Source: Proteromonas lacertae (lineage: Eukaryota). From it: a stretch of DNA of 64,000 nt. Below the pieces are notes generated by a model, which saw nothing but the letters and a program-made list of their open reading frames with translations, made no database searches and had not been told where the DNA came from. A program made the position numbers and the translations under genes. The stretch spans positions 1-64,000 of the forward strand of contig NGBS01000874.1 in NCBI GenBank assembly GCA_002245135.1, read 5' to 3'. Positions 14,438 through 37,957 of the stretch are shown here, one piece after another. Numbering within the stretch: position 1 is the first letter of the stretch; the number at the start of each line of letters is the position of its first letter.

Positions 14438-14451
14438 ATTAATAATAAAAA

Positions 14452-15569: not shown

Positions 15570-15583
15570 TTAATCATTATCAA

Positions 15584-16219
15584 TTATGGTCTATAATATT
15601 CTCTTTTTGATATGACTCCCACAAATTTACAAAGACAATGATACACGCTCCATATTAACCGCTCATACTCATCTAACTCCCTTTCAAAATGCACCAACTC
15701 ATAGTGATTTCCTTCTTTTTCATTATTACGTATACGTTCCCATAGGCATATTAACACATTATGAACTCCAACTTTTACTGCAGAGTACGGAACAGTATCT
15801 TTCAAACATAATTTTATAGCATCATCGACTCTATTACTCACCTCTATACAATCTTCTACACTGAGATTAAAAAATCTTGTTTGAATTCTATAATGAGTTA
15901 GAGATTCTTTAAAAATTTCTAAAATATGCTGAATTTGAGTTATATTGAATTTCACACGTGGTAAACTCTCTTCACCAATTGGTAATGCTAAACCAGCATG
16001 TCCCTCACAATCACATATTGCTCTCTCACTATGCTCCAAAACATCTAAATTAGCTTTATATGTATGCACATCCATTTTCTTTACATCTTTCTCATTGAAT
16101 AGACATACTGGTTTTACAGCATCTTCAATCGGCAATGCTCTTTCTAATTCAGTGAAATCTAGAGGTTTAACAATACTTTTAGGTGAGTCAGTATGTTGTA
16201 ATGGTGGTACAGTATCCAT
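15584..16219 (-). CDS. Hypothetical viral protein
   Basis: ORF of about 211 aa from MDTVPP. Confidence 0.6.
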   Translation of the reverse strand: MDTVPPLQHTDSPKSIVKPLDFTELERALPIEDAVKPVCLFNEKDVKKMDVHTYKANLDVLEHSERAICDCEGHAGLALPIGEESLPRVKFNITQIQHILEIFKESLTHYRIQTRFFNLSVEDCIEVSNRVDDAIKLCLKDTVPYSAVKVGVHNVLICLWERIRNNEKEGNHYELVHFERELDEYERLIWSVYHCLCKFVGVISKREYYRP

Positions 16220-16278
16220 AATAAACAAAAAGAAATTAATTAAAAAAAATAAAGTAATTACGTTTAATCACTTAACAC

Positions 16279-16818
16279 TTAAAGATCTTCTAAATCTTCT
16301 TCTTTATCAAGGTTTTTTGAATCGTCACATTGCATGTTTGGCTTGACCAAATGCTTATGTTTTTTTGATGGTACTAATTCATCTAATGATTCAGATATAG
16401 CATTTAATAATTTTCTCTTGATGATGTGTATCTTATTATCATTGTCATTGACAATTTCAGGAATATCATATACATCATACCATTGATCATTATCGCTATC
16501 ATAATCATCCTGCTCCATATTCGATTCAGCGTCATTTTCATCTTCACTATATGCAATAAAATCCTTTAAATTACCATTACTATCAACATCACTTGCATTT
16601 GGATCATCTTCAGGATCATAGTCATCTGATTCATCGTCAGTACATTCTGCTTCTCCATATAAGTACTTATACACATTATCTAAATAATCATTCTCTCTTT
16701 TTCTTTTTTGACTGAATTGCATTTTCTTATCTTCTAAATTTTCTTTCTTTTGGTCTTGATCATTTGATTTACCCATTATGCCTATAACGTGTATGGTATT
16801 ATGGTTGTTTGAATCCAT
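16279..16818 (-). CDS. Acidic hypothetical protein
   Basis: DVDSNGNLKDFIAYSED acidic motif and KRKR NLS-like stretch. Confidence 0.55.
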   Translation of the reverse strand: MDSNNHNTIHVIGIMGKSNDQDQKKENLEDKKMQFSQKRKRENDYLDNVYKYLYGEAECTDDESDDYDPEDDPNASDVDSNGNLKDFIAYSEDENDAESNMEQDDYDSDNDQWYDVYDIPEIVNDNDNKIHIIKRKLLNAISESLDELVPSKKHKHLVKPNMQCDDSKNLDKEEDLEDL

Positions 16819-16886
16819 AGAACACAATATACAAAAAATAATAAAATGAAACGAATATATTTCAAATATTGATATTATGTTAATTA

Positions 16887-17246
16887 TTAACCTATTAATG
16901 TCATATTTTGTCTAGCATATTGCACAGGAGTTAAATTCTGTACTGGGTATGGTTGTTGTTGTTGTATTGGTGTTTGATTTCTCTCCATTAACACTTCATC
17001 TGTCAATTTATTTAATATAGCTTGTGCTTCCTTGAATGTCCATGGATTAATACTCTTTAACATCTGTTGTGCCTCTGGAGGTAATGTTTCGAGTGTTTTC
17101 AGTACTTGAGCTTGTTGATCATTTTGTACCGATTGTTGCGATTGTTGATTTGGTTGTTGTTGTGGTAGATATTGAGGGTGTTTACCATCTTGTTGATATG
17201 CAACACCACTATTAAATGTTATTTGAGGTATTGGACCAGCTGACAT
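16887..17246 (-). CDS. Gln-rich hypothetical protein
   Basis: ORF with a paralogue remnant at 22333..22539 (LPPEA..ML). Confidence 0.6.
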   Translation of the reverse strand: MSAGPIPQITFNSGVAYQQDGKHPQYLPQQQPNQQSQQSVQNDQQAQVLKTLETLPPEAQQMLKSINPWTFKEAQAILNKLTDEVLMERNQTPIQQQQPYPVQNLTPVQYARQNMTLIG

Positions 17247-17319
17247 ATTAAAAACGGCTATAATGGCAATATTGATATTATTGACTATATTATCACTCAA
17301 AAATATAATTTTTTAAATT

Positions 17320-17847
17320 ATGGTTAAAAGAAGTTCAAAAGCGAAATATCGTAAGTATATCATAGGTAAAGGCAAGTTCTGGGATGGAGTAAAGAATTTC
17401 TTTAAGAAAACAAAAATTTTATCAACAGCAGCTAGCTTAATCCCAGGTGTAGGTCCAGCCTTAGGTAATGTTGTATCCAATGTAGGATATGGTAGAAAAC
17501 GTAGAAGAAGAGGTGGACAAGCAGAATGGAATTATGATGGTGGTATAAGTGGTGGTTCTTTTTGGAATAAAGTTAAGAATGCAAAGATACCAAAGGAATT
17601 AAAAAATGTAATTAGTGGTGGTCCAGGCAGTATGCCCTATTTAAAAAATGGTGGAATGGCTAATCCATTTGCTGTAAAGATGTTAGGTGGTCCAAGCACT
17701 ATTCCAAAAAAGAATTGGACAAAAGGTGGTCCAAGTACTATTCCGAAATTTTTGTTAGCAAAGAAAAAGACTGGTTCTGGTAAAAGACGTAAAAGTAGTA
17801 ATAGTCTCGATAATCGATATATTGACAATAAGATTAGAGTTTTCTAG
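17320..17847 (+). CDS. Basic core/membrane-lytic precursor-like protein with adenain-type GG sites
   Basis: IIGK|G, ISGG|S, ISGG|P and MLGG|P sites, amphipathic FWDGVKNFF and SFWNKVKN helices, Arg clusters. Confidence 0.6.
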   Translation: MVKRSSKAKYRKYIIGKGKFWDGVKNFFKKTKILSTAASLIPGVGPALGNVVSNVGYGRKRRRRGGQAEWNYDGGISGGSFWNKVKNAKIPKELKNVISGGPGSMPYLKNGGMANPFAVKMLGGPSTIPKKNWTKGGPSTIPKFLLAKKKTGSGKRRKSSNSLDNRYIDNKIRVF

Positions 17848-17906
17848 TCTAATTTTATTTTTTTCTATTTTAATCGTATTTCTTTATTTTCATTCGAAAT
17901 AACATA

Positions 17907-18200
17907 ATGCCAAAAGGTGGTAGAAGACGTAGATGCGTTTATGGAAGAAGGGGTGGTTCATTTTGGGGTAAGTTAAAAAATTGGGGTTCCAAAGCATTTA
18001 ATTGGGCAAAGGATCATAAAATAGCATCCAAAATAGCTAGGGAATTTGGAAAGAACGATATCGCAGATGGATTATCAACAATGGGATTTGGTCGTAGAAG
18101 ACGTAGGTCAGGAAGAGGTAGATTACCATTCAATGGAGGTGGGAGTAATCAACAAGCATTATTGAATGCATATTTAAAATCAAAGGTGGCTCGAATGTAA
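17907..18200 (+). CDS. Adenovirus pVI/pX-like small basic protein
   Basis: RRGG|SFWGKLKNWGSKAFNW resembles the pVI amphipathic helix; poly-Arg stretches. Confidence 0.6.
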   Translation: MPKGGRRRRCVYGRRGGSFWGKLKNWGSKAFNWAKDHKIASKIAREFGKNDIADGLSTMGFGRRRRRSGRGRLPFNGGGSNQQALLNAYLKSKVARM

Positions 18201-18294
18201 GCTTGACTTTTAATAATGCTAATAATACTTATATTATTATTATTTTCATTGTTTTTTTTGTTAATTTTATTTTTCATAACATAGAAATAAAAAA

Positions 18295-18909
18295 ATGAGT
18301 GATACTGAATCAACTGAATATGTGAGTGATGATAGTTCTACTGACGCGTCTGATAGTGAAGTAGAGTCAATAAATGAAAATGATTCCAAGATGTCCAAAC
18401 CAAAAATCACAGAAGCTGAACCAAGTGATGCTATGATCAATGAATTACTATCACAATTCTCTCCAAAGGATATATACAACATATTACAGAATGATGGATC
18501 ATCATCTCATAAAAATTCAAAAAAAGGTAAAAAACACTCCCATAAATCCAGATCAAGATCAAGATCACATGAGAGATCCAAAAGAAGATCTAGTAAGAAA
18601 CAAAAATCAAATGCTTTAGACGAGCCTAAGTCCAAATGTGGTGGTGGTAGAAAAAATAGTAAAAAGGATAGGGACTCATCATTACCTCCTCCTAGTCGTA
18701 TGACAAAAGCTGAATTACAAATAGCTTTGAAAGAAACTAGAGATCAATTAGGTAAATATATGAAGAAATTAGAAAAGAGTTCAAATCCAAAGAAAGAGAA
18801 AATAGAGAAAGTAAAAGAACCAGAACCAGAAGAAGATAAACCATTAGGTAATGATATTGCAGGTAGAGAAATACAAGGCGAGCCTATCGAGCCTGTTTAT
18901 GTTCAATAA
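18295..18909 (+). CDS. Acidic N-terminus, SR/K-rich hypothetical protein
   Basis: 204 aa ORF with a paralogue remnant at 22953. Confidence 0.6.
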   Translation: MSDTESTEYVSDDSSTDASDSEVESINENDSKMSKPKITEAEPSDAMINELLSQFSPKDIYNILQNDGSSSHKNSKKGKKHSHKSRSRSRSHERSKRRSSKKQKSNALDEPKSKCGGGRKNSKKDRDSSLPPPSRMTKAELQIALKETRDQLGKYMKKLEKSSNPKKEKIEKVKEPEPEEDKPLGNDIAGREIQGEPIEPVYVQ

Positions 18910-18974
18910 TATTAATAATACTTATATTACACATTATTATTATAATTAAATTGTTTTTTTATTTTCTATTAAGT
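18754..18974 (+). repeat. 221 bp direct repeat (second copy 20671..20891)
   Basis: Identical KYMKKLEK...EPVYVQ* coding end and 3' flank. Confidence 0.9.
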
Positions 18975-18978
18975 TATT

Positions 18979-19839
18979 ATGAAAAAACTAAATAAGAAAA
19001 TACTACTTGCTGTGTTTGCTCGGATGAGAGGCAAAGGCAAAAGGAAGAAGATACGGAGAGGTGAAGGATATAAAGGACATGACAAATATTATCAGAGTTT
19101 ATATAATAATTTTTATAGAGAAAATGCGAAAGATTTAGTGGATATAAGAAACAGTCGTTTAAATGAAATAAAAGATGAGATTACTAAGTTGAATTCTAAA
19201 GACACTCCTCCTAATGAAGGTGATATTCGTAAATTGAATGATGAGCAAAAATTTTTAGAGAGACAGAATGCAATCGATTCTATGTTATCCACATCATTAC
19301 ATGAAGGTAATGCAATGGCTATACCACTTGCTAATAGTTTAAGAGAGATTGATGATCAGCATTTGTTTGGTCCTAACATGTATGTGAATATGAATAGACC
19401 TAATTACAATGAAATGGCTCAAGCAAGTGCAAAGACTAGGATGCAGATGGGTGAGTATATGAGTAATCCAATTAACCAAATCAAGATGTCACAAATGCAA
19501 CAAATGGTATATATGCTATATGTTTTGATTTATATATAATAGTAGAAGTTGAATAAATTGATTACTCCTAAAGCAGAAACAGATATTAAAGTACAGCCGT
19601 CAACTGATATTAAAGATGATAAAGGCGATGATAATAATGAAAATGATGATGAATATACTATTGATGATGTTAAGAACTTAACAAAGGAACAAATAGAAAA
19701 TGCATTAAAAAGTGATGAATTTACAGAAGCTCAGAAAACTAAAATAAAAGAGTTGTGGGAAGAAGCTCAAAAACAAGATGACTTTGAATCTGACTTTGAA
19801 GAAGATGCATGGCAATCTGTAGAACGAAAGAAAAGTTAA
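18979..19839 (+). CDS. Two-exon hypothetical viral protein (intron 19507..19545)
   Basis: A 39 nt GTATAT...TAGTAG intron containing the stop codons joins in-frame ORFs 18979.. and 19549... Confidence 0.65.
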
Positions 19840-19915
19840 TATCATCTACAATATCAGTAATGGCTATATTTCTAATAGTAATATTTCTCTATTTTTATAT
19901 TGTTTTATATATTTT

Positions 19916-20542
19916 ATGGGTGTTAAACGAAAGCATAAGCAACAATCATCACCAAAAGAAGAAGCAATTGATTTTGAGAATCCCTCTGTGTATCATAATG
20001 CACTTAAAAGAAAATTGAAAAAGATCATCTATAACAAGGTGAAAGATAACAAAAAAATAAAACTAGATCTCAGTCACATGGCTAACCCAACAGCCATTGT
20101 TGACAAAGGCAATGGTACATATGGATTAGATGTCTATGATCCTAAATCTAGTTTCAATAAATTTTATGATACTATAGGAGATGAGGATGATATAGAGGAA
20201 TTATCAAAGCCTGTTAATCCAAATATAAACGCAACAAAAAACAATTTCATGACTGATGAGATGAAATACAAATTATATATGTCAGGCATCACAGACCAGT
20301 TTGGACGATATTATAGGAACATAGGTAAGTATAACAAGCCATACTCAGATTATTATGCTCAACCAGAGAATTTAACATATCAATGGCAAAATCCATTTTT
20401 ATCTCAAATTGAAGGACAGCCATTACAACAATGGGGATCACAGTACAATGTAAATTCATATCAATCCAATCCAAGATGGAATAATAATGCTGGTACAGCA
20501 CAAAAGATCACGAGTATGAATTACAACAAGAAAATGAAATAG
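19916..20542 (+). CDS. Hypothetical viral protein
   Basis: 208 aa ORF. Confidence 0.55.
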   Translation: MGVKRKHKQQSSPKEEAIDFENPSVYHNALKRKLKKIIYNKVKDNKKIKLDLSHMANPTAIVDKGNGTYGLDVYDPKSSFNKFYDTIGDEDDIEELSKPVNPNINATKNNFMTDEMKYKLYMSGITDQFGRYYRNIGKYNKPYSDYYAQPENLTYQWQNPFLSQIEGQPLQQWGSQYNVNSYQSNPRWNNNAGTAQKITSMNYNKKMK

Positions 20543-20892
20543 TGAAAGCAAGGAATGAAGAATATCAGAGAAAGATAGCAACAATGGAAGAAAGAGAAAA
20601 ACAATCATTAATTTCAAAAATTGATAAATATTTCTCAGGTAATACAACATACGATTGGTTGAAATTTGGCAAATATATGAAGAAATTAGAAAAGAGTTCA
20701 AATCCAAAGAAAGAGAAAATAGAGAAAGTAAAAGAACCAGAACCAGAAGAAGATAAACCATTAGGTAATGATATTGCAGGTAGAGAAATACAAGGCGAGC
20801 CTATCGAGCCTGTTTATGTTCAATAATATTAATAATACTTATATTACACATTATTATTATAATTAAATTGTTTTTTTATTTTCTATTAAGTA

Positions 20893-22248
<1,356 letters not shown>

Positions 22249-22259: not shown

Positions 22260-23377
22260 TTAATAAAGACCAGTTATTTGTGAATTAGCATAATCAGCAA
22301 TTTGTTTAACATAGGCATTATTATTATCTGGATTATTCCATCCTCTTTGGTTCATTGTAGGTACAGTTGGTTGATATTGTGTTGAAGATTGTGTATCTGT
22401 TTAACATATTCTTAGCTTCTGGTGGCAATTTATTCAATATTCCATATAATTCATTGTCTTTTTTTATATCATCTTCGCTATTAGTTGGTTGCTGAGAATA
22501 AACTGGGTTTTGGCCATCTAACTGAGGTGCAATACCCAAATATATTTACAGACATCCAAACGTTAAATCTGCAATAAAGAAGTTCAAAATTAGACCTTTT
22601 TTAAAAGGAGGGCCAATTACTATTCCTTATTTTCTAAAAAAGAAAGAACTGGAAGAAGAAGAAGAAGAAGAAGAAGTGATAGAAAAAGTAATAATGTGAC
22701 AATAAATTTGATAATCGCTTTATTGATAATAAGATAAGAGTACTTTAATATTATATTATATTATATTATATTATATTCTGTTTTAACCCTTTATATATTA
22801 GTTTAAAACATAATGGTAGTTGGTGGCAGAAGACATAGAAGACATAGAAGAGGGCGTAAAGGTGGATCATTAAAATCAATGTGGGGAAAATCAAAAAATT
22901 TGGGAAAGAAAGCATATGTATTAATTATTTCTTAATAAAATATAATTATTACATGAGTGATTCAGATTCAACAGATTATACTAGTGATGTAACATCATCT
23001 GAGGGTGAATTTAAGAACAATAATGAAAATGATGAAATTATGAAAAAAGTCTATAGAATGCTAACAAGTGATAATGAAAAAAAACATAAACATCACAACC
23101 ATGATTCATCAAATGATGTAATTATTAAAAGATTAGGATCTAGAAAGAGTGAAATAGATCAACTAAAAGAAGAGATAGGCATTATGAATGAAGATACTCA
23201 TGGAGATAATTCAATAAAAATTATAAATTAAACAAGTCAACAAAAGCTACTAGAAAGACAGAATATAATTGATCAACAACTAGCAAGTTCTCTTCATGTG
23301 GGTAATAGTATCTCTCATCCAATTGCAAAAGACTTAAGAGAGTCAAATGATCAAAAAATATTTGGATCACAATATAT
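22260..23377. pseudogene. Degenerate syntenic paralogue block from a second virus lineage
   Basis: Remnants homologous to 16887.., 17320.. (KGGPITIP, NRFIDNKIRVL), 17907.., 18295.. (MSDSDSTDY) and 18979.. (NDQKIFG), in the same order. Confidence 0.75.
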
Positions 23378-24073
23378 AGTATATAAATGGGACTATGGGA
23401 CATTGTCACAGAGTTCTAACGAGTGTTCTAGGAGTCCGTCCCCTTCTATATTCAGAGTTGAACTTTTGTACCAGGGTCCTATTTACGTAAGGTTCCTACG
23501 GGATTCCTCCCAACAGGGTCTACTTCTCAACGGGGTCTACTTTCCTACGGGAACTCCTCTAAGCTATTTCTATACCTATCTATGAGACGATCTCCTACGG
23601 GTACTCCTGGAAGCTATCTAGAAGTGTTGGTTACCTCGAGGTGATGGTAATGAAGAAGCAGTGATCTCTTTCGGAGTATGGGTAAGAACGTCTCAGAGGA
23701 AGCTTCCTTACCAAGGACGATGTTGCAGAGCAATATCGGACTTGGATAGGAAGGTTCCGTCGTAGACGTTCTTGTCCATGCCAGGAAGAAGAACTGCTTT
23801 CTTCATTACCAGGATCATTGAGAAGGTACTTTCATTTGATCATCATCCTGGATGTTGAATCTCTTGGAATTGTTGCTGCCCAACAAAGCAAGGTAAACTA
23901 TTTGCACCATGGTTGGGCAGCTCCGAAGGTGGTCACTGATTATAGTTATCCTCTTGCTTAGACTTCCTCTATCTATTACTATCCCTTAACTTCAGTCTAG
24001 GTAGGTATCGGCTTCTCCTGTAATGTTTTAGATCGATCCCAAGACAGAGCCTTATCGATGAAGATTGCAATCC

Positions 24074-26539
24074 TTAGTTATACAAAGTAGTGCAAGTGAA
24101 GATAAGCGGAAGGTCGAAGGAAGATGCTGCTATACTCTCTTGTAAGAAAGTAAGCTGATCTTTACCATTGAAAGCCATAAACCCTGAAGGTCTTGTTGAT
24201 TTACCAGTCTCGGGAATATGCACCCAATAAGAGGTTTTATTCTCGAGGTGAAATGCCCTTAAGAAGCAACATACCAGATCGTCACTCGCGTTGACAATAA
24301 CTATTCCATCAAATGAGATTGTTTCGTAACTTCGATCTATTGCAGTGATGGATAGCTGAACTCTGTTCGGATAAGCCGTAAAACAACCTTGGCAACTATT
24401 CACGTAGTGAGGTATTGCAATCTGAAGGTTCTGTACTTCAGCAATCACGGCATCCTGACTATTAAGGATGTAGTTCCACATTGAAGTCAAGGTCTCATTC
24501 ATCTGATTAGCTACCGTGGTAATCTCCGATGATCCATCTCCTTGAGATGCCAGGCTTTCTACTGATGTCTTTAACTCGGTCAACTTCTTCTGGACATCCT
24601 GAACATTGCTATCGACTGAGTTGATCTTACTTAATTGAGCTGCACTGGTAAAGTTGTTTACTTGAGTCACAGCCAGGTTGTTGAGGTTGTTGACTTTGCC
24701 TTGGACTTCAATGACTCTTGTCTGGCAGTCTCCTATCTTTGAATGTACTTCATTGACCTTGGCTAATTGAGCTGGTGAACAAAAGCTATTGACATTCCCG
24801 GAATTGAATCCATCGATCTTGGTTCTGATAGCAGCTGCATTGTTGATAGCTGTATCGATCAGTCCTTTACGGGTATTGTTAAAGAAGCCATCCAAGTTCC
24901 TTCGTAGGTTGTCTTCTTCAGTCCTTCTAGCCACGCCACAGGTTGCATTCACATCATTGATACTTAGAGAATCCACCTTGATCTTGATTGCATCGGTGTT
25001 GGCCTTAGTTGTATCAATGAAGTTACCTCGGCCTTCAGTACAGAACTGGTTAATACTCTCCTTGTTGAGGTCATGGACACGTTCATAACACTTATCTATC
25101 TTCTCCGATCGATCCGAAGTACAGAAGTGCTTCACTGCCGTGTTAGTCTCATCGATAGCAGCACTTCTCGGGATAGTACAAAACTCCTTGATCGCGTTGT
25201 CAGCATCGTCGAGCTCCTTAGTTCTCTTATCGGTAATGAATCCTTTGATCAGTTCCTCAATACTCTTGACAATGGTAAGTCTCTCCAAGGAGCAGTAGTT
25301 GTTAATGTCTTCGATGGCTATGCCGGTGATCAGCTCATGGACTTTATCAATCTTCTCCTTCTGTGAGCTACTACAATACTGGTTGATATTATCAATATCT
25401 ACCTTACTTACAATATCCTTGGTCTTGTCAATAGCGGTAGCTCTCTCCTCAGCGCAGAAGGTATTCGTCTTGTCAGCTTCTCCATTCAACCTGGCGATCT
25501 CTTCCTCCATAGCATTCATCTGGTTCTTGAAGTCCTTGTTGTAACCATTGGCAATCTCCATCTCTTGTAAGACCTCCTTGAACTTAATCATGTTATTGTT
25601 GATCACAGTATTGATTGCCTTGTACTCCTCGTAGTTGTTCTTCATCTTGATCAACTCCTCGGAGGCTACTTTGATCTGCTTCTCTAAGTCAGTGAGCTTC
25701 GTAAGGCTCTTATCATCCACCGTAGTGATGTACTTGATCATATCGTAGACGTTAACATCCCCGATGTTGAGACTCTCGCATAATGACTTCAACAAGGTAC
25801 TTAGACGATCCAGTTTCTCATCCTCCGATGCTTTCAATTGATCGATTGAAGTGTTGGTGGATTCAAGGGCATTGCTTACATCCTCCATGCTCTTATACAA
25901 CTCTGGTAATTGCTTCTCCGTGTATTGCTTAAGTTCATTGTTGCAAGTAGCGATATTGCTCAAGGTTGTAATAGTCGTATCTCCGAAGTCTTTAGGGATC
26001 TTGTTGTTAAGCAAAGTACTTAGGTTCTTGACTTCCTGGAGCTTCTGATCGATACCTTCAATCTTATCAGTCTCATCTTGCACTTCCTTTAAGGTCGATT
26101 GAATAGCTTTATGATCTGGTTGTAAGGTACCTTGAAGGTACTCATGGAGTTGATGATGATCAGTCTCTAGCTTAGCCAACTTCGTAGATGACTCCTCCGA
26201 GTGATCATCCAACTTTCTCTTGATAGCTGTTGTGGATGAGGTTACTTCTTCTTGTTGCTTCTGATTGATACTGACGGGTGTTCCTCGGAGGACTTCTTGG
26301 ATAGTGCTTACCAATGGAGGATTGATCTTATCATAGTCTATCACGGCCTTGAGTTCACCAGAACCCAAGGCCTTTTGAATCACTTCCTGGGAGTCTTGAA
26401 ACAACACGTCCTTATCGTACTTAACAACGACCTTCCCATCTATCTTTTGCTTCACATCGTAAGTAGTCTTGTCGATAGTATTAAGTAACCTTAACATCTC
26501 CTCATCGTTCTCCCGTAAGTTGTTCCCGGTGTTGAACAT
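24074..26539 (-). CDS. 821 aa long coiled-coil protein with (I/V)NxFC repeats and a globular C-terminus (fibre-like)
   Basis: Intact ORF with heptad-rich sequence and repeated INQYC/INNYC/IKEFC/VKHFC/INQFC/VNSFC. Confidence 0.75.
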   Translation of the reverse strand: MFNTGNNLRENDEEMLRLLNTIDKTTYDVKQKIDGKVVVKYDKDVLFQDSQEVIQKALGSGELKAVIDYDKINPPLVSTIQEVLRGTPVSINQKQQEEVTSSTTAIKRKLDDHSEESSTKLAKLETDHHQLHEYLQGTLQPDHKAIQSTLKEVQDETDKIEGIDQKLQEVKNLSTLLNNKIPKDFGDTTITTLSNIATCNNELKQYTEKQLPELYKSMEDVSNALESTNTSIDQLKASEDEKLDRLSTLLKSLCESLNIGDVNVYDMIKYITTVDDKSLTKLTDLEKQIKVASEELIKMKNNYEEYKAINTVINNNMIKFKEVLQEMEIANGYNKDFKNQMNAMEEEIARLNGEADKTNTFCAEERATAIDKTKDIVSKVDIDNINQYCSSSQKEKIDKVHELITGIAIEDINNYCSLERLTIVKSIEELIKGFITDKRTKELDDADNAIKEFCTIPRSAAIDETNTAVKHFCTSDRSEKIDKCYERVHDLNKESINQFCTEGRGNFIDTTKANTDAIKIKVDSLSINDVNATCGVARRTEEDNLRRNLDGFFNNTRKGLIDTAINNAAAIRTKIDGFNSGNVNSFCSPAQLAKVNEVHSKIGDCQTRVIEVQGKVNNLNNLAVTQVNNFTSAAQLSKINSVDSNVQDVQKKLTELKTSVESLASQGDGSSEITTVANQMNETLTSMWNYILNSQDAVIAEVQNLQIAIPHYVNSCQGCFTAYPNRVQLSITAIDRSYETISFDGIVIVNASDDLVCCFLRAFHLENKTSYWVHIPETGKSTRPSGFMAFNGKDQLTFLQESIAASSFDLPLIFTCTTLYN

Positions 26540-27756
26540 TGCCTAGGTAATGATTCCAGATTAGAACTTTACTTATAGATCCAGGAGCTACTTTACTTAG
26601 ATGGTTTCTCAGGTATCTCTTATATCATAACATGTCCTGGCCTTCAACAGCTTTACCTACCTCCCGAGAAGTACCTTGCTTACTCTATCCACACGATGAA
26701 CTTCAACTCCTTACGATTACTAGCTGATGGATGTAGATGACTTTATCGGTCTTTGTAATGAGTTGCGTGATCTCTATGCTGTAAACTTCATAGTCTCGAT
26801 CATCATCTACCATCTTAACTTACAATGCTTCTATTCCGATAAGACTTATACGATGGTCAGAAGCCTCCCTTTGAAGTTCAACTACTCTCCGTAGACTTCA
26901 CTTGCACCTTTGACTTCCAAGGATCTACTAATCGTCTCTCTATTCTAGATGCTCCTTTACCTTCTTGGACTTCTCGGACGTGACAGACATTGCCTATGAA
27001 GTACTTTGTCTTCACTCTTGGTTCTAGCAGTCTATGATCACTGCTATAGTAAGTACCTTGAGACTGACTGCTGAAGTTAGAGTTGATCTCATCCTTAACA
27101 TCTCTTGAAGAACTACTTGTGATCTTTATCGATACCTATCTCTTGAACTGATGGTAACCCTTCAAGTGACAATTCCTTCTAGTTCTAGTTCATCGAAGTT
27201 GTTGATCCTCAGTAATGTACTAGCCTTCAGTCTGATCACTACTAGTCTCGATATTGTTATTGAAGTCAGTGTCTTTACCTATCTACTGATAATCACCTTA
27301 CGATCGATAGCTTATAGACTCTTGGACATCTATGCCAGTGTTGCTACTTGAGGAGTATACGATATCTCTGGTCTACTTACTTACTTACTAGTAATGATTC
27401 CTAGCATCACAAGTAAGGACTACTAAGGTAAAGGATTATCGATCACACTTCCTATAGTCTGCAATTGTAACTCATTATGTACCTACAACTACTTCATGAT
27501 CTTCAGAGTCATTGATCCAAGGATGTTATCTCGGGGTTGTTGATGTCCTTACTATCATTGACTTATTCGAGACTCCTTTAATTGATTACTTACCATGTCC
27601 TTGAGTTGCTCATCTCCGTAAGGTTCCTTGAATTGATTATTTCTATTGTCCTCGGTTATACCCAAGGTAACATTTTACTAAGTACCAACAATGTTAATCA
27701 CGTTCCTTATCAGGAGATGGAGATGTGTTTATTACTACTACTACTACTTGTGGAAG

Positions 27757-28545
27757 TTACGATGACTTTGCCGAGTAAGGAGTTGCTTCAGAAGCTAGCT
27801 TTAGATGCTTCGCTGGAGGATCACTTGAAGCACCTAGCGATGGTACTGAGGGTGTTGTTATCGGTCTCTTCTTCGGAGGACTACTAAGCTGTTTTTGTCT
27901 CCTCATTGATTCTATCCTGAGTAGGAGATGATCTTCATATTGTCTTAAGCGATGATACAGACTCAAGAGACAGCACATCGGAAGTGACTTTACCTTTAGA
28001 TCTACGTGAAAGTTGATGTGTCCATCTTTGATAGATAAAACTATCTTGGCCTGGCAAGACTTCTCTTTGAGGTGAACAGCATCACATGGAAATGTAATAA
28101 TCTTATCGAACATCCCATCATGGTCGATTAGATCATTGTTGTCCTTGATTGTCTTAAGAATCTCATGTATACTGTGTTGCATAAGCTGATTAATTATATC
28201 CCTTGTTTTATCACTGGAGTTGATGGAGATTCCTGGTTGTTGATTCTTAGTAGGTTTCCCAGATCTACATCTTGGACAACATCGATAGTAGTCTCCATTG
28301 GGCTTTAACATCATCGATGAAGCGAAGTGCATATGGCATCTACTGCAGGACATAGTCTTGGCTATGAGTTCACCGTTCTCTTCCAAGGCTTTACGTTCCT
28401 CATGGCATCGGGCTATTGTCTTCTGCTTTGCCTTTGGTAAGAGAGCTCTACAAGAACTACAACAGCTGTATGCTCTTCCATCAGCTTCAGATTGGAACTC
28501 CTTCTTACATCGACTACATTTGACGATGGATTGCATGGTTACCAA
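27757..28545 (-). CDS. Tandem CxxC...CxxC zinc-finger protein
   Basis: CSRC...CSSC and CSRC...LKPNG...CPRC. A homologous remnant with LKPNGGY lies at about 36230-36310. Confidence 0.65.
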   Translation of the reverse strand: MVTMQSIVKCSRCKKEFQSEADGRAYSCCSSCRALLPKAKQKTIARCHEERKALEENGELIAKTMSCSRCHMHFASSMMLKPNGDYYRCCPRCRSGKPTKNQQPGISINSSDKTRDIINQLMQHSIHEILKTIKDNNDLIDHDGMFDKIITFPCDAVHLKEKSCQAKIVLSIKDGHINFHVDLKVKSLPMCCLLSLYHRLRQYEDHLLLRIESMRRQKQLSSPPKKRPITTPSVPSLGASSDPPAKHLKLASEATPYSAKSS

Positions 28546-30042
28546 TTAAGTATAAAAATAACTAGAAATATTTTAATGCCTTGAGTGACTGTAATAATTG
28601 ACTGGTTACTACATATTGATCTCATGGTTATTAGGTACTTGTTTATTAGCTTTACTTCTATGAGTTCTTATTCATATCTAGGAATGATGATTAGTAGATA
28701 GTCTGTAACTGGTTACTACATATTGATCACTTAGATAAGCTATTGGAATTTAGCAACTAAGTCCAGGATCTATTTTCTATGTCCCTATTTTTAAACCTTC
28801 CTTACGATGTCCTTAAGTCCGGTCAGTTCAATTTTTCTTGGCCTTATCAGAGTTGTGAATGCACCTCCAACTCCTAGGCTTCTTGTAGTAGGGGTCACTC
28901 AATGCTTCCTAAGCTCCTGCTGTTGATCTCATTCCAGTGTTAGGGTATCTGGTACTGTACTTTATAGTGAACTGTTGATTACAGATTCATCTCTATTCAA
29001 TTTTTTCTTTGAAGTTTGGATCTCTAATGTGGTTGATGATGGTTTTGATGGATACTAGAAGGCCATGTAGGCTGTGGTATGGATTTTATGAAGTATCAGT
29101 GGTGGGGTTCGAACCTGGAGGGGATGGGATGTTGGTACCTGGTCTGCCCACTAGGGCATCTTGACCTTGCTTATGTATTGCTGATCCTAGTATATGTATT
29201 GTTCAGCTACAGTATTTAGTGAATAGCTTCAGAATGATTCCTATTCTATCTCCATTGGACAGATGATGGGGAATTGACCTTAAGAAATTGCTCATTAGCT
29301 TACCTCCAGTAACATCTCTAACAAGTGCTCAGGTAAGTTCCTGCTTATCCTAAGCTTCCTAATCACGGTATCCACGTTTCTACTATTGCTTAGATGATGA
29401 TGCTGTCCTCGGGAATGAACTTTACCTTCAGGAATAAATAAACTAAACTGGTATGTAAGGAGCTTCCTAGTAGATGAATTATAAGGCTAATGGAAGATAC
29501 CTACAGAACCCTCCCGAGATTGTTTATCACGATCTTCAAGGCCTTTGATAAATTCAGAACTAGCTGGAGCATCTTGGATTCAAGTCTTAGAAAGACAATG
29601 AAACTTACCTAGGCAATGATCCTGTTCCTTGGCTTTGTAATGCAGTCTCTTGATGGAAGTTCCATGACTATGTCAGGAGGAACATCCCTTCCTTGCTAGG
29701 ATAGATGATAATTGAACTTACCTAGAAGAGTTATAAAGCCATTGTAACTTACATCTAGAAAGCTCCCGAGATTGCTTATCATTATCTTCAAGGCCCATCC
29801 AGAAGTACCATCAAGGCACCTTCCCAGATACGTCCAGCCGTGCATGACTGCGTCAGGGAATCTCCCATCGTGGGAGATTCCTTTCCTTGCCAACACAGCT
29901 GTTCTTCTCGGGAAGGTCTTGGATGAACTTATCTAGGAGAGTTTTAAGGATGATAAAACATACCTTCAGAAGCCTTCCGAGATTGCTAATCATTATCTTC
30001 AAGGGCCCTTGAGAAATCCACAACTAGCTAGAACCTCCCGTA

Positions 30043-30094
30043 GTTACCATTTGGTAACTTGTTACCAATTGGTAACTAGTTAACAATTGTAAAC
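30043..30094. repeat. Three 16 bp palindromes at an 18 bp period
   Basis: GTTACCATTTGGTAAC, GTTACCAATTGGTAAC, GTTAACAATTGTAAAC; conserved at about 36496..36545. Confidence 0.8.
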
Positions 30095-30225
30095 TCCCGG
30101 TTCCACGATTGGTTTCCACGGTTCAATTAAAAGCCCTTACAAGATCACCAGCGTAGCAAGGAGAGTCAAGAGCATGATTAGAATCATCACCTCGAGGTAA
30201 CCAACACTTCTAGATAGCTTCCAGG

Positions 30226-31295
30226 CTGAGTTCGGCGGGGACAGGGACAAAAAGGACATGTCCGGGACATGTCCGGGACAAGAGTATGATAAAGGACAGT
30301 AATTTATCCCTTTTGTAAACATTTGATATTACCTTTTTGTAATATAAATAAATTATGTGATTTTTTTGTTTATTAAAACATTTATAAGTAAGAATAAAGA
30401 TAATTAATAATAACATTGATAATCTGGACTACCTTCTTCACTTTGCTCATCATCTTCTTCACTTATATCTTCCACATTAGTAATTTCTCTATTTTCATCT
30501 TCATCAATTCCTACATTTTGTTCTTATTCTCTCTTATTTCTCTCAACTAATTCATACTTTAATCTCATAATGTTATTAATAGTATCTAAGTTTAATCTAT
30601 TTCTCCTGTATGAATGTATTACTCTTTCGATGGAGAAAATTCTCTCAATAAAAGAGCTTGAACATGGTATTGTTGATATAATGTCATAGATTTTCTTTAA
30701 ATTTCTAAAGTATATCTCATATGTTGTAAAGCATATATCGATTGAAATACTTTCGCGAAAAATGGAAGAAGGTAAATAATATATGATATTAAAAATGCAA
30801 GAACTCGAGTTAATCAAACATTTTTTCTTTTTTTCTACTTTTTATTTGTATTTAATCCAGGCATATTTTATAGTACAAATTAGTGCAATGATAAGCATGT
30901 ATCATGTGGAGTTCTGTTATGTGATGAGTGTTTGTAAATGGGGATATTCTTCATTAAACTATACAGAGTTATCTAAGTGGTATAAGTGGGTTAAATATTA
31001 TTCATAGATATAGCAAATATGGCTTAAATGGATTTTCAAAAGATATTATTTAGGATATACAAAAATGACTTGAGTATAGTATGTAATACTTAATATTAAG
31101 CTTATTTAATGCTATTGCAGAATATTTTTATTGAAAAAACAGAAACTTAAACTCAAAAATATAGGACAAAAAAGGACGTGTTAAACTACACGTCCCGGGA
31201 CAAAGAGGACATGTGTAATCAACGAGAAGTTTTAGTGTATGAAAAGGACAAGGGACGGGACAAAACACAAAAGGACGTCCCGTTGCCGAACTCAG
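30226..31295 (-). mobile_element. Non-autonomous hAT transposon inserted in the right TIR
   Basis: CTGAGTTCGGC...GCCGAACTCAG termini; TSD CTTCCAGG (30218-30225 and 31296-31303). Confidence 0.95.
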
Positions 31296-31473
31296 CTTCC
31301 AGGAGTACCCGTAGGAGATCATCTCATAGATAAGTATAGGTAGGTATAGGAAGGTATAGGTAAGTATTGGTAGGTATAGATAGATATAGAAATAGCTTAG
31401 AGGAGTTCCCGTAGGGAAGTAGACCCCGTTGAGAAGTAGACCCTGTTGGGAGGAATCCCGTAGGAACCTTACG

Positions 31474-31676
31474 TAAATGGGACTCTGGGACATTGTCACA
31501 GAGTTCTAACGAGTGTTCTAGGAGTCCGTCCCCTTCTATATTCAGAGTTGACCTTTACGGGAGCTTCATCGATGCAATCGATGAAGGCCCCGTAAAAGTC
31601 AACTCTGAATCTAGAAAGGGACGGACTCCTAGAACACTCGTTAGAACTCTGTGACAATGTCCCAGAGTCCCATTTA
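31474..31676. repeat. 203 bp terminal fold-back palindrome
   Basis: Arms of about 100 bp with few mismatches around CTTCATCGAT-GCA-ATCGATGAAG; duplicated at 49218..49420. Confidence 0.95.
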
Positions 31677-31688
31677 TATACTATATAT

Positions 31689-32520
31689 CTTACTATCTCT
31701 AAAAAACAAATATTAATGTAATTATAATAATAAATCTCTATTTCTGGATATTAATAATTTGTCTTCAATAAGTCTCTTACTTTCTCAGTTTCTGAAAATA
31801 AATAAGCATTATAAAACTCTCTTAGAGGTATAATATATCCTAATTTGAAGCAAAACCTTCTAAATTCTGGTGAGTCTAATATTGTGGTACTGACTGCATT
31901 GAAGGTTATTAATTTAAATAGATCTTTGTTGACAGAATCTGAATTGACTTTGGCTTTTACCATATGTAATAATCTGAATATTTTATTTTAATCACGTTTT
32001 CCAAAACATTTTGAAGTAGTTAAAATGTTACTTCTCTAACATACAACAATTGAATAAAATCACAACTCTTTTGATGCGATAGGGGGTAATGTGATATCCC
32101 TATAGTTTCATATATTATAAAGTCTTATAAATATTGAGTAATTATACATTTAAATGATCTAAATCTTAAAAAATAAAGATTAACTTTGTCAAACCATCAA
32201 GCTTGATGTTTTTTTCTTTTATTTTTTTTATTCTATAATTAATTTAATATTATGTTAATAATATGTTATTGTGAGTCATCATTGAGAAATAGATCAAAAT
32301 AATAGTAATATAAAATGTGCATCGACCGACTGTCAAATTTGATATTTGAAAGATGATGTATAAAACATTAATTTTGTATATATGGTTAGATTATATGCTT
32401 CTTAACTCATGTTCAATAGGAGGTCAACTAATAGTTAGTATAAGTAAGGTAAAGGTCAAGCTAAAGATATAGGTTTTGACCTATAGGTAAACCTATATTT
32501 TTTGACCGAAAAATACAACA
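31689..32520 (-). mobile_element. End fragment of another TGTTG-terminated (Ginger-like) element containing an hAT-like transposase fragment (31751..31963)
   Basis: Terminus ...CCGAAAAATACAACA at 32520, where the duplication with 48375 also stops. AAGCTTGAT subterminal motif shared with the Ginger 5' regions. The ORF has ILDSPEFRRFC..LGY.IP. Confidence 0.5.
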
Positions 32521-32561
32521 CTTGTTATTATCATATATACTGTCATATATAATTGTAAAAC

Positions 32562-33938
32562 ATGATAACTGTTAATCAAATATATCCATTCATATTAACT
32601 ATTTTATTTCTAAGTAAATACTATTCTGAGTCTAATGTATTATCTTACCATTCATACAAATTCTATGAAAAATGCACTACTACAAGATATTTATATAATA
32701 ATACAATTTGTTTATTAAAACATTTGCAGAATTATAGTAATGGAAAAGATGTATGGAAAGATATACTTTTCAATGATAATAATAATGCTTGTTCATTTTT
32801 TAGAGATATGAATTTATTTAAACATAATCAAATGTATTTTTATCATAGATTATATAGTAGACTTCATGATAGTAATTCAATATCTATTGAAGGACATTTT
32901 CCAGATAAATCATATTTACGATTATTACCTAAAAATAAAAAAGATTACAAAAATGTAATTACTCATACATATGAAGTTCAGAGGTATATTTATAGTTATC
33001 AGCATCCAATAAACTGTTTTAATAAAAAGTTCCTAATTATAAAGGGGTTTAAATCTGGGCATGGATCTGAAATACATGTTATGACATCTTATTTATCTTT
33101 AGCAATGTCGACAAACAGAATAGCCATTTTTGATCCATATTATACAAACGACAAAGCAAATGGCACATTTTGTAAAAATGAAAAGAACTGGTTATGTTTT
33201 CTTGAACAACTAACAAACTGTTCATTGACTTTTTTTCATTTTTATACAGCTATAGAATATAGAAATAATAGTCAAAAAGAAAAGTATTTATTTATAAAAG
33301 ATTCGCAACAGTTTAGAACATTAATACCTAAAGATATTAAAAAAATTATTCAGCCATCATCGATGTATAAGCACAAATATCTTCACTATTGGCGAATTCA
33401 GGCAACTACATACATATTTAGATTAAACAGAAGAACAGAAATAAAAACAAATCATATGATAAAAGAATCAATTGGAAATAAATTGCTTTATAGTTGTTTT
33501 AATATTTGGGTTAGACATGGAGATAAATACAGAGAAATGACTCTTTTAAAATCAGAAGATTACATTCCCTCCTATAATATTTTCAAACGTGTTATTGGAT
33601 ATAACATTCCCATATACTTGTCTACTGATGATCCAAATGTTACTCTTTATTTTGATAAGAAAAAGAAATACATTAATTCATATTATTTAAAGTTTAAACG
33701 AAAGAATGATCATTGTATTGAAAATTTAAGAAGAGGTACAGAAATGACATTATATTTTATTGCAGATATAAAAGCTGCATTGTATTGTGATGGTTTTAGC
33801 GGTACTAGAAAAAGTAATGTTGTAAGATTGATTGATGAATTAAGAACTACAGTGGGTTTATCAGCAAATTCTTTATACTTTGAAAATGGAGATATTCATT
33901 TTTCTGATACAGCTTATGAATATTATGAATTTTGGTGA
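32562..33938 (+). CDS. GT23 (FUT8/NodZ-like) alpha-1,6-fucosyltransferase-like protein, probable host gene
   Basis: N-terminal hydrophobic anchor; GHGSEIH, VRHGDK, IYLSTDDP and SNVVRLIDELR motifs; intact 458 aa ORF. Confidence 0.8.
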   Translation: MITVNQIYPFILTILFLSKYYSESNVLSYHSYKFYEKCTTTRYLYNNTICLLKHLQNYSNGKDVWKDILFNDNNNACSFFRDMNLFKHNQMYFYHRLYSRLHDSNSISIEGHFPDKSYLRLLPKNKKDYKNVITHTYEVQRYIYSYQHPINCFNKKFLIIKGFKSGHGSEIHVMTSYLSLAMSTNRIAIFDPYYTNDKANGTFCKNEKNWLCFLEQLTNCSLTFFHFYTAIEYRNNSQKEKYLFIKDSQQFRTLIPKDIKKIIQPSSMYKHKYLHYWRIQATTYIFRLNRRTEIKTNHMIKESIGNKLLYSCFNIWVRHGDKYREMTLLKSEDYIPSYNIFKRVIGYNIPIYLSTDDPNVTLYFDKKKKYINSYYLKFKRKNDHCIENLRRGTEMTLYFIADIKAALYCDGFSGTRKSNVVRLIDELRTTVGLSANSLYFENGDIHFSDTAYEYYEFW

Positions 33939-34644
33939 ATAAGAATTTATTTCATTAGAAAATATACTGCTGATAGTGTAAAGTATGATATCTACTAAAT
34001 ATGTTGTGAAAGATAAGTTATATTATTAACATACGTTTGTATGTTTTTATATCATAGATTGAATCAAATATATGTAAAGCCGTAAGAATATGTTACCGAT
34101 AAGAATAAGCGATTTAAGCGAGAAAGTAGTTTTTGATCATGTGAATGAAAAGTATGTTTAATTAATCTGATGTAGTATGATGATCAAAGTTGTTTGTGAT
34201 GATGATTAACATCCTATTGTAGATTAAGAAATAGTTTTTTTATCGTATTAAGTATTCAACTATTTCTATTACTCTACTTCAAATACTATTAATGTTAATT
34301 TGTCATATACAGTTTTAAATTATATTTTTCACTTTATTTCAATTTTCATTTATTCATTTTGATTTTGATAAAAATATATTCTTATTTGTTATTTTCACTC
34401 AGATCATATTCATATTATCATATTATCATCATACACAGCTTTTAAACTGTTCAACAACAACTTATATACAATTTTAGATGAATCTACTACAATAAACCAT
34501 TAAACATTATATTCACTTATCTTTCATTTTATATTATTTTAATATTATTTTTCACTCACTTTTACAAATATACCAAATATTACCATTTCTTAGAATTTTC
34601 TGATTTTCAAACTATTGAATAATGAAAAGAGTATTAAGATATAT

Positions 34645-36895
34645 AGTATAAACATGGGACTTTGGCCTAATGTCATAGAGTCCTAACAATGGTTCTAGAA
34701 GCCATGACTGAAAGAATCTTTGATTATGATACCAACTACTACCTCCAGTTGAATGATGCCAGGGTGATGTCCTTCTTCATTGACTCCAACAACGCCGAGA
34801 TGTTTACCAAGAGCTTACGATATAATGTGGACATGGCAACTCAACTCTCCGAGCAGGTACTCTCAATGTAGCTCTCTGGAAGAGAGGCAACAAGAAGCTC
34901 TTGGCCTTTAAGCAGAACATCTACAGTAACGTCAGTAAAGTCTTCATGTTCTTGCTAGTGATCAAGGATTCAGTTATCTATCCAGGCAAGGAAGTGTCTA
35001 GCGATGAAACTACAACGGAGGCAACTTTATTCAACCTGTAAATATCTTTCCTCATTACAAGATCAAGGACATCTCCATAAATGCTTATCAGCCTCCACAA
35101 CCTCAGTTCCCACAAGGGATGACTTCTCAAGGAGTTATTCCTACTCCTACTCAAGTAGTTGCACCTCAAGGAGTTCAACCAAAACAACAACCTAAAAAGC
35201 CTTCTCAAGGACCTCTTCAATGACTTCAACATCGACTTAATTCCTAGTTGTTGTTCATCAAGGGCTTTCTCATTCATATGTTTTCGCCTTAAGGGCTTTC
35301 TTCTTCATAGCACTGTTAAGTTCCTTGTCGAATTCTTCATCATCGTCTAAGTAGTTGTCTAAGGAGTCATTTTCATTACCTAAGTCATCCTTGGGAGCTT
35401 AATCTTCTGACTTCTCTTCTCCATATTCATACTTGCTATCATTCACATGCTTATTCCAGGTAATAGGAGTAGGATGGATGGAGTAGGCTAATTCATTGAA
35501 GACTGTATGGAGTATTCAGTCTTGAGTGAGTCCATTACCTTCTTGATATCCTCGGAGGTAGGTTTCTTTGATTCATCATCATCAGCAGCAGCAGCAGTAG
35601 TAAGTAGTTGTCTTAGTAAGGCCATTGTATTCTCATCACCATCATCGGAGCTTCCTCTGGCTCCTTGTTTCATCATCATCATCATTATTGTTGAAGGGTC
35701 AAGATCCTCGGAGGAGTCACTTACTTCACGGTCAGCTTCAATGCTCTTCATGATTGTAGGAACTACAAGGAATCCAGGAGTTGATATCGCATCTACGATT
35801 GCCAGGCTTTACTATTTGATACTCTCTAACTACATTATAAGGTGGTGGAACATCATTAAGATCTTCTGCTTCTTGTGTTAGTTTAATAAATTGTTTTTCA
35901 CTTAAGTAATAATTGTTTCTCATAAAACCTTTGAAGTTCAAGGAATTATCGGACTAACCATTTTCTATGAATTCTATCCGAATCAGCAACTGTCTTAATA
36001 TTTTTCCATGTCCTTAATCTTCATGATCCAACCTTCCGTGAATGCTACGCCTAGTCGACTTCACCTTTCATGTTCCTATTGGAATGGATTCTAAGTACTT
36101 CTTACATTGGATATTCTTCGGCTCTAAGCATTGATTATTACCTTGTGCTGTGTTAGTCGATCAAAGCTCTCATGGTTGCTAGAGTCTTGAGATAGACTGA
36201 TAACATATTCCTCCGATTAAGTCGTACTACACACTGAGGAGTATCCTCCATTGGGTTTAAGGAAGTTCTCTAGCTCCTTCTTCTTGAGGCGCTTCATGCA
36301 AATAGACAACTGATGAGAAAATATTAGCTGGATCTATTGCTTACGACGACCTTAACTTCCAGCCGTAAATTGCTTTCCCTTAATAGGTCCTCTACCTATC
36401 GAGTATTCTACGTTCTCGGGAGCCTTCTGCGAATGCTATCTTTCTTCGGAAAAGACACTCCTATTAAGCTTTTAACTAGCCGAAGCCTCCTGGATTTACC
36501 AATTGGTAACTTGTTAACAATTGGTAACAAGTTAACAATTGTAAAGTCCCTGTCCCCAGTTGGTTTCCAAGGTTCAATTAAAAGCCCTTACAAGGTCACC
36601 AGCGTTGCAAGGAGAGTCCCTGTTGTAGGAAATAGTCTCATAGGTAGGTATAGGTAATTAACACTTCTAGATATCTTCCAGGAGTACCCGTAGAAGATTG
36701 TCCTGTAAGAGGAGTCCTGTAAATGGGACTATGGTACAATTGTCAAAGTTCTAACGAGTGTTCTAGGTATCGTAGATGTTCTTGTCCATGATTGCTGCAT
36801 TTGAGGCATAATCAGTAAGGCTTTTATTAGAATCGTTGAAACTCACCGTAGAACCGGGAATTTACAATTCTTAACTTGTTACCAAATGGTAGCTT
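34645..36895. mobile_element. Diverged, deleted relative of the 23378..31682 element
   Basis: ATATAT|AGTATAAACATGGGACT terminus, subterminal palindrome triplet, TIR-like blocks at 36655-36770 and similar GC content. Right end approximate. Confidence 0.7.
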
Positions 36896-36976
36896 CTTTT
36901 AGCTATCTTCTATATATGCAAATTACATTTATAGTAATAAATAGCAAAAGTTTAAATAATTTGCTTAATAGTGTGA

Positions 36977-37957
36977 TTATACCCATGCATGAGCTCTAAT
37001 TCCTTTTTTTCTTAGGTGAAGAAATTTCATTGTTGCGCAATACAATGAACAATTTCTATCTACCTTTTTTCCCCACCATTTCATCATATATGGCTCATAA
37101 AAATGATATTCAAAATAAAATTCATTTGGCATTATATTGTTATATTTTATTAAATGATTAAATATAGGAATTTCAACAGCTGGAGTATCAACATCAAGTT
37201 TAAAAATAATGTATGAATGATTTTGATATTTCTTTATCAAATTAAGTGGATTATCATTTGATGTAATATTTGTTGTAATTGGTTTATTATAGTAATTATA
37301 TTTTCTGAGAATATCATGTGGTATTTCTTTTAGTGCTTTGGTAATATTTATTTTAGCAGCCTCCCACAAATACCATTTTCTAAATTCTGTTGAAGGATAT
37401 TTTTTATAGAAATTGTAAAAATAACTCTGACTCGATCCTCCATATCCTTCATTAAATGTAGAAGCACCAGCATCAATATATACTATAGGTTTATACAAAG
37501 CAAATAAATAGGAAGGTAAAAGATAATCTTTTGAAAGTATATTACCCTTTTTACCAGTACAACACTGAGAAAATGTGTTTCTAAGAATGCCAAATAAAGG
37601 TTCTATATACTCTTTTACCAACCTGCCATATTTATTTTTGAATAAAAAGTATGACATATCCTCTCCAATGCATTTACGATATTTTAATTCTTTACATTTA
37701 AATATACTATTGTTTAATAATATTAATCTGTTAGTAAAGGGATATATGAATTTGCAATATTGTTTATAGTAATTATATTTATGATGTTTAAGTATATTAA
37801 TCCATTCCGTTTCAATCTTAGATGATTTATAAGCTATATATTTTAAATAATCATTTTCGTTTTCAGTTATAAAGTTATATAAAAATATCACTGATAATAA
37901 CATAATAATATTAATTATAACTAATGAAAAACGATACTTTCTCTTATACATAAACAT
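36977..37957 (-). CDS. Type II membrane FkbM-like SAM methyltransferase, probable host gene
   Basis: N-terminal TM helix; VYIDAGAS, IFKLDVD and EFYFEYH motifs. Confidence 0.7.
   Translation of the reverse strand: MFMYKRKYRFSLVIINIIMLLSVIFLYNFITENENDYLKYIAYKSSKIETEWINILKHHKYNYYKQYCKFIYPFTNRLILLNNSIFKCKELKYRKCIGEDMSYFLFKNKYGRLVKEYIEPLFGILRNTFSQCCTGKKGNILSKDYLLPSYLFALYKPIVYIDAGASTFNEGYGGSSQSYFYNFYKKYPSTEFRKWYLWEAAKINITKALKEIPHDILRKYNYYNKPITTNITSNDNPLNLIKKYQNHSYIIFKLDVDTPAVEIPIFNHLIKYNNIMPNEFYFEYHFYEPYMMKWWGKKVDRNCSLYCATMKFLHLRKKGIRAHAWV

Follow-up and report, generated by a model that had tools for sequence, protein, structure and literature searches.

A GC-rich element with a long terminal palindrome in a viral gene of Proteromonas lacertae may be the remnant of an endogenous virophage- or Polinton-like virus

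The analysis described here was confined to the first 64,000 nucleotides of contig NGBS01000874.1 in the Proteromonas lacertae assembly GCA_002245135.1 (the window, to which all counts of copies, flanks and junctions refer). Judging from its gene remnants, the window is a cluster of broken genes of the Maverick and Polinton-like virus (PLV) type. One of them is interrupted by an element that runs from 23378 to 31682 between terminal inverted repeats (TIRs). This element, the subject of the present work, is real, foreign and unclassified, and it is made up and bordered as follows (ORF, open reading frame).

22954-23377, plus strand: host-virus gene interrupted by the element; paralog of 18979-19539 (38% over 94 aa, E 6e-15)
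23372-23377, no strand: ATATAT at the left junction, overlapping the final codons (Q-Y-I) of the interrupted viral gene
23378-23646, plus strand: left terminal repeat, 269 bp, with one hairpin arm (23384-23466) in flipped form and 101 bp of the hairpin gone
23646-23810, no strand: second imperfect hairpin, just inside the left repeat (z -10.6)
24074-26539, minus strand: orphan ORF of 821 aa with a long helical, coiled-coil-like body and a beta-rich C-terminal part
26540-27756, minus strand: region between the ORFs, with a weak minus-strand coding bias and stops in all frames
27757-28536, minus strand: orphan ORF of 259 aa with two CxxC...CCxxC zinc-ribbon-like repeats
29461-30032, plus strand: three diverged direct repeats of ~92 bp each in a non-coding stretch
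30185-31682, minus strand: right terminal repeat, taking in a nested hAT transposon and the complete terminal palindrome
30226-31295, minus strand: the nested hAT transposon, internally deleted, 1070 bp, with an 8-bp duplication (CTTCCAGG), splitting the right repeat
31474-31676, no strand: imperfect terminal palindrome of 203 nt, 93.6% self-complementary, 6 bp from the tip
31683-31700, no strand: ATATAT at the right junction (31683-31688) and 12 bp similar to the outer flank of a diverged copy described below

The left tip, AGTATATAAATGGG, begins at 23378 directly after ATATAT, and its reverse complement forms the right tip, which has its last base at 31682 and is followed by ATATAT. The tips read AGT...ACT (also AG...CT), with AGTATA as the terminal motif. 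The left and right repeats differ by 11 mismatches (96% identity over 269 bp) in an alignment that excludes the 1070-bp hAT and its 8-bp duplication as well as 101 bp of hairpin and 50 bp of short tandem repeats. A preliminary description, made from the sequence, had reported TIRs of about 270 bp with AGT...ACT ends at these coordinates and a GC content above that of the surroundings, and both statements hold: the element, 7.2 kb long once the hAT is subtracted, has 41.3% GC versus 23.9-30.2% in three flanking blocks. Its composition is distinctive in other respects as well. GC at third codon positions is 0.51 in its long ORF versus 0.14-0.28 in nine ORFs outside; AAAA and TTTT runs occur at 0.26 of expectation versus 0.99-1.13 in four outside blocks; and a 4-mer model trained on the element gave positive scores only for the element, its duplicated end and the diverged copy. 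This avoidance of AAAA and TTTT, measured over 23378-30225, is four-fold, goes beyond base composition, is 2.3-fold in the diverged copy and is absent from the host and the neighbouring virus. Searches with patterns of the end sequences gave no match among viral contigs and none among metagenome contigs, and 23378-30225 had no match among phage records.

The terminal palindrome folds at -115.5 kcal/mol (z -25). The left end retains one palindrome arm and 19 bp of the other, and at all three sites where the two right arms differ, the third of which hinges on gap placement, the left arm carries the base of the inner arm; the left palindrome thus appears to lie in the orientation opposite to that of the right. 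The palindrome, the flipped left arm, the nested hAT, the hairpin at 23646-23810 and a further tip at 49212, within a duplicate, are all absent from the preliminary description. The second hairpin shows no significant similarity to the terminal one, and its Rfam miRNA match (40.7 bits, cut-off 140) reflects hairpin shape alone. No ribozyme family was found in 23200-37100, and thus no hammerhead of the kind carried by Penelope elements.

Just two long ORFs in the element have a codon usage resembling that of genes, and both lie on the minus strand. Its content had been given as a fibre-like coiled coil and a Zn-finger protein only; two long ORFs are indeed all there is, and the smaller one has zinc-ribbon-like repeats, but "fibre-like" is an interpretation, as the structure models considered below make plain. 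The 821-aa protein has seven [FY]C motifs (residues 361-586) and no likeness to the fibre-position gene at 53069, and fold searches with its low-confidence model returned nothing above background (best Z 5.2). A fibre role is plausible because long fibre genes are common in PLVs (PMC12220804). Stop-codon reassignment was considered and is unlikely, since the 821-aa ORF has 40 Gln and no in-frame TAA or TAG. No relative of the 259-aa protein was found (one search covered near-length proteins only), atlas matches were all under 0.9, and an exact-match protein collection contained none of 10 window proteins. The region between the ORFs is likely to consist of decayed genes: it yielded no spliced parse free of stops, and spliced-gene parses of the two non-ORF gaps lay at or within the shuffle null range for four of four region-strand pairs. 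In addition to the two ORFs, 24 stop-read-through frames from the non-ORF parts of the element and from the diverged copy were compared with Pfam, and none matched at the cut-off applied; no transposase, reverse transcriptase or Rep, and no other mobility gene, was detected in the element in this way.

Two other segments of the window are related to the element.

34645-36911, plus strand: diverged 2.3-kb relative with 57 bp of the left tip (77% identical), frameshifted genes and a right part made of sub-terminal sequence and one hairpin arm
48367-49608, minus strand: inverted duplicate of 31297-32528 (right tip and flank), with 1225 of 1231 aligned bases identical

The diverged copy starts with AGTATAAACATGGG at 34645, preceded by ATATAT (34639-34644). 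It is 77-90% identical to the element and hence not a duplicate of it. Since its frameshifted genes are unrelated to the 821-aa and 259-aa ORFs, the two are probably different remnants, each keeping other parts, of a larger ancestor. The tip at 49212, by contrast, lies inside a segmental duplicate with the same flank, so that the independent junctions number three and not four. All three (23378, 31682 and 34645) abut ATATAT, as had been described. This hexamer occurs 181 times in 64,000 bp, or once per 354 bp, and its presence at three junctions is thus not due to chance; it is likely that the element favours ATATAT sites. Where the interrupted gene ends in F-G-S-Q-Y-I, its paralog reads F-G-P-N-M-Y-V, with Y-I coded within ATATAT, and this alignment is weakly consistent with ATATAT being target DNA. 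Integrases of the gypsy and Ginger kind favour such sites: Ginger2 prefers RTATAY (PMC2836005), and in Drosophila the elements of the gypsy group insert at ATAT or TATA cores and duplicate 4 bp (PMC3276498). A 6-bp target site duplication (TSD), which had also been proposed, turns out to be an interpretation and not an observation, because the AT repeat is self-complementary and the ends are not paired, so that a duplication of 2, 4 or 6 bp would fit equally.

A duplication of 5-8 bp would be typical of Polintons; ATATAT stands on both sides of the element, but the flanks are not collinear. None of the three frames of the right flank continues the gene cut on the left, as the preliminary description had noted, and the two ends therefore do not stem from one clean insertion. 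The idea that the right flank is debris of a hAT found no support. At 49609-51974 lies a full-length hAT whose 446-aa transposase has a DUF659 domain (E 2.8e-17) and a hAT dimerisation domain (E 2.5e-6); this hAT is flanked by the repeat of the element on one side and by sequence of a capsid-like gene on the other. These mixed flanks indicate that transposon-driven rearrangement has been at work in the window, which could account for adjoining ends of different insertions.

The hAT family has three copies in the window, at 4633-5649 (in pPolB debris, with the 8-bp duplication AATAATAC), 30226-31295 and 49609-51974 (mismatched flanks). In all three, a shared TAA is followed by ~30 in-frame codons of an acidic tail.

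Taken together, we give an even chance to the reading that internal deletion has left the element as the non-autonomous remnant of an endogenous virophage- or Polinton-like virus, GC-richer and with palindromic ends, which an rve-type integrase had inserted. Composition, context and the fibre-like protein point to a viral origin. In this scheme, a GC-richer virus of the virophage or PLV type would have entered the host, and its free genome would fold the terminal palindromes back, priming synthesis and inverting the palindromes (flip and flop); an rve-type integrase, since lost from this copy or supplied in trans, would insert the virus at ATATAT, and deletion, hAT insertion and recombination would leave the present remnant. 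Flip and flop ends within a family would give a left arm with inner-arm bases. The ends of two different insertions may have been brought together by recombination or by adjacent deletion, with the region reshuffled via hAT copies. The element would thus work like an integrated virus of the Polinton class, yet it is not classed as a Polinton, and it is probably a previously undescribed variant of the palindrome-ended integrating viruses.

The closest published match is provided by the palindrome-ended virophages and PLVs of Halocafeteria seosinensis. In that work, palindromes are described in the TIRs beside the TSDs of virophage subtypes 1, 2, 5 and 6 and of PLV subtype 4; they go together with non-pPolB replication genes, and a role as replication primers is proposed for them. 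Viruses nested in other viruses, TIR-bounded fragments without core genes and invasion by DNA transposons are reported as well (bioRxiv 10.64898/2026.07.28.741278). The element shares with them a palindrome within the TIR by the junction (31474-31676, 6 bp from the tip, z -25), the nesting, the core-less TIR-bounded form, the transposon invasion and a GC contrast with the host. It differs in that its palindromes have opposite orientations at the two ends, it is GC-richer than the host, ATATAT recurs at its junctions, and no core gene is left, the non-pPolB replication gene and the rve integrase being absent from this copy. A palindrome within the repeat adjoining the junction points more to these palindrome-ended viruses than to protein-primed Polintons.

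With Polintons and Mavericks the element has in common a TIR of 269 bp, within the 100-1500 bp range, AG...CT tips and possibly a 6-bp duplication (PMC8097293, PMC10748475). However, canonical Polintons are 13-25 kb long and encode pPolB and an integrase (PMC10748475), whereas the element without its hAT measures 7.2 kb, bears a long terminal palindrome and contains neither gene, although the same profile library detects pPolB debris in the flank. Vertebrate Mavericks end in (AGT)2 or (AG)3 with 6-bp TSDs (PMC8097293), and the AGTATA tip agrees with these in AG or AGT alone. Because neither an integrase nor a polymerase, capsid protein, Rep, transposase or reverse transcriptase was detected inside, the element cannot be classed as a Polinton. 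Of the earlier proposal that a Polinton-like family had inserted into another endogenous virus, a foreign TIR element in a gene of a Maverick- or PLV-like virus thus stands, and membership of the Polintons does not. Transpovirons resemble the element in their size of ~7 kb, TIRs, zinc-finger protein and want of a capsid, but it has no helicase, resides in a cellular genome and carries a terminal palindrome and a fibre-like gene (PMC11788076). Neither the reverse transcriptase of DIRS/Ngaro and Penelope-like retroelements nor a hammerhead ribozyme was found.

Several observations weigh against a viral remnant with invertible ends and a preferred target. The palindrome has 203 nt versus 52 nt in the Halocafeteria subtype that is figured (bioRxiv 10.64898/2026.07.28.741278). 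No capsid, ATPase, integrase, polymerase or primase-helicase was recognized in the two ORFs or in any of the 24 read-through frames, so that the profile search for integrase, pPolB and major capsid protein recommended in the preliminary description is negative for this copy; the search detected no major capsid protein of virophage or PLV type and no protease, with a low sensitivity, given that Pfam also misses the neighbouring capsid-like family. A search of 1.84 billion representatives at E 0.001 gave no relative of the 821-aa protein, nor did 7988 candidates (near-length proteins only), and its models, with predicted local distance difference test (pLDDT) scores of 37.7 and 39.7, are too poor to show a fibre fold. 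The flipped arm is read from three bases, and the end that holds them is also short of 101 bp, with 3 mismatches in the 19 bp left of the other arm; template switching or an error of sequencing or polishing at the hairpin can therefore also explain it. Template switching in an imperfect palindrome and sequencing errors at hairpins can both yield a flipped arm. If the mismatched flanks and the copy at 49212 are added to the flipped arm, all three might be chimeras of assembly or amplification, an idea prompted by the several large inverted duplications (97.9-99.8% identity) and frequent frameshifts in the window. This is improbable: the duplicate at 48367-49608 has a hAT end at one border and a TGTTG-type end at the other, and the hAT allele that it adjoins is a different one (96% identical), a picture suggestive of transposon-driven rearrangement, the 821-aa ORF is intact, and the diverged copy, at 77-90% identity, is no duplicate. 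Independent junctions, moreover, number only three, and past ATATAT the right flank and the outer flank of the diverged copy agree at 10 of 12 bases, with an anchored score of 7; of 3000 random pairings among 352 other ATATAT half-sites, 1.1% score as high. Accordingly, recurrence beyond chance is the part of the earlier claim of a recurrent target that stands, and the choice between a target and a longer terminus is the part that does not. ATATAT might belong to the terminus, in which case the true tip would lie ~12 bp outward, as AGAG...TAAG-ATATAT-AGT, and the left end would have been cut back by a deletion via ATATAT microhomology; both flanks would then begin with AGAG, near the (AG)3 motif of Mavericks (PMC8097293). 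We consider this unlikely, because the left junction has nothing in common with the others past ATATAT (score 0), the 10/12 match is one of three comparisons made, an extended target preference would produce equal flank similarity, and a further ATATAT lies at 36912, near the far boundary of the diverged copy, which is itself uncertain as a weak alignment runs beyond it. A terminus of this kind would still be compatible with a viral identity, but the claim of a site preference would fall.

The want of viral hallmarks inside the element would also suit a cut-and-paste DNA transposon that is non-autonomous and has long ends and captured cargo, be it Ginger2-, Tc1/mariner- or Mutator-like or of an unknown DDE type, its hairpin being a foldback by-product or a transposase-binding array. 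ATATAT fits the RTATAY target of Ginger2, as do three of three independent junctions with regard to the sites of Ginger2/Tdd and gypsy-clade integrases (PMC2836005, PMC3276498), and active hAT and TGTTG-ended families are present in the window. Such an origin is nevertheless rather doubtful, as those integrases make 4-5 bp duplications and Ginger ends in TGT (PMC2836005, PMC3276498), while the element ends in AGT and has no integrase; its codon use and homopolymer avoidance are unlike those of host genes and of the resident hAT, and so unlike captured host cargo, and the read-through frames hold no transposase fragment. Homotelomeric parvoviruses have imperfect terminal palindromes of a 100-550 nt class that undergo flip-flop inversion (PMC12297876), and with its palindrome of parvovirus telomere size in two orientations, the flip being seen as three bases in the deleted end, the element recalls an endogenised rolling-hairpin replicon, such as a parvovirus-like satellite or another DNA with hairpin telomeres, that host repair captured at AT repeats. 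Against this, no Rep/NS1 or parvoviral capsid (VP) match was obtained, the element is larger (7.2 kb, with a long coiled-coil gene) and integrated, and an integrase is suggested by the precise, identical tips, which extend 6 bp beyond the palindrome, and by the constant hexamer next to them, all of which makes this origin very improbable. A bolder version of the virophage- or Polinton-like remnant, namely an undescribed family of eukaryotic dsDNA viruses that combines parvovirus-style hairpin transfer from 200-nt flip/flop ends with an ATATAT-specific retroviral-type integrase and parasitizes Maverick-like viruses of the same host, appears distinctly unlikely.

The element bears on the open question of how the ends are copied in virophages and PLVs that lack a protein-primed polymerase, for which hairpin priming from terminal palindromes has been proposed, without test, in the Halocafeteria work (bioRxiv 10.64898/2026.07.28.741278). 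The mismatched bases of the 203-nt palindrome are natural markers, and if copies were to split into flip and flop classes, hairpin-transfer replication would be demonstrable from sequence alone. A fixed ATATAT target, if true, would be unusual for virophages and PLVs, no such report being present in the limited literature collection searched. The claim of a site preference rests on three junctions and faces a live alternative, and the flip/flop claim rests on three bases.

Among the viral genes outside the element are a flanking pPolB (PF03175, E 3.7e-10), an rve integrase at 41913 (PF00665, E 7.3e-12) and an A32-like ATPase (E 9.2e-5, just under the cut-off). Proteins of 417-484 aa form a capsid-like family that has 6 unnamed relatives (38-71% identity) and is taken for the major capsid protein on the basis of size and position only; neither PDB nor Pfam gave it a label, and it yielded no loci. 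Two related AT-rich endogenous viruses (9880-22248 and 52013-54605) share the gene order of capsid-like gene, ATPase (48% identical between them) and fibre-position gene starting with MF.

A TGTTG-ended family, Ginger-like by its ends, has 103-bp inverted repeats at 38499 and 46509, the latter interrupting a pPolB-like ORF, as well as a 645-bp miniature (41001-41645) with 275-bp arms and further sites at 55669, 62706-62836 and 32527, and lies near the rve gene at 41913. Paralogous ORFs at 40107 and 56575 near this family have no family match and are presumably protease-like; a short inverted pair (39245-39298/39841-39896) is located near them, and another strong hairpin occupies 56292-56389 (z about -6.5 in a local scan). 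Large inverted duplications (1-3834/9308-13156 and 44440-45239/47095-47895, 97.9% and 99.8% identical) comprise viral and hydin-like sequence, and a hydin-like host gene (44039-47895 and 58494-62300) is present as several frameshifted, partly duplicated fragments among mobile elements; hydin-like domains point to a flagellated eukaryote as the host. Finally, two intact, intronless, AT-rich ORFs without a Pfam match (32562-33938, 458 aa, and 36977-37957, 326 aa), which we take to resemble glycosyltransferase and FkbM-type methyltransferase genes, converge on the gap that holds the diverged copy.

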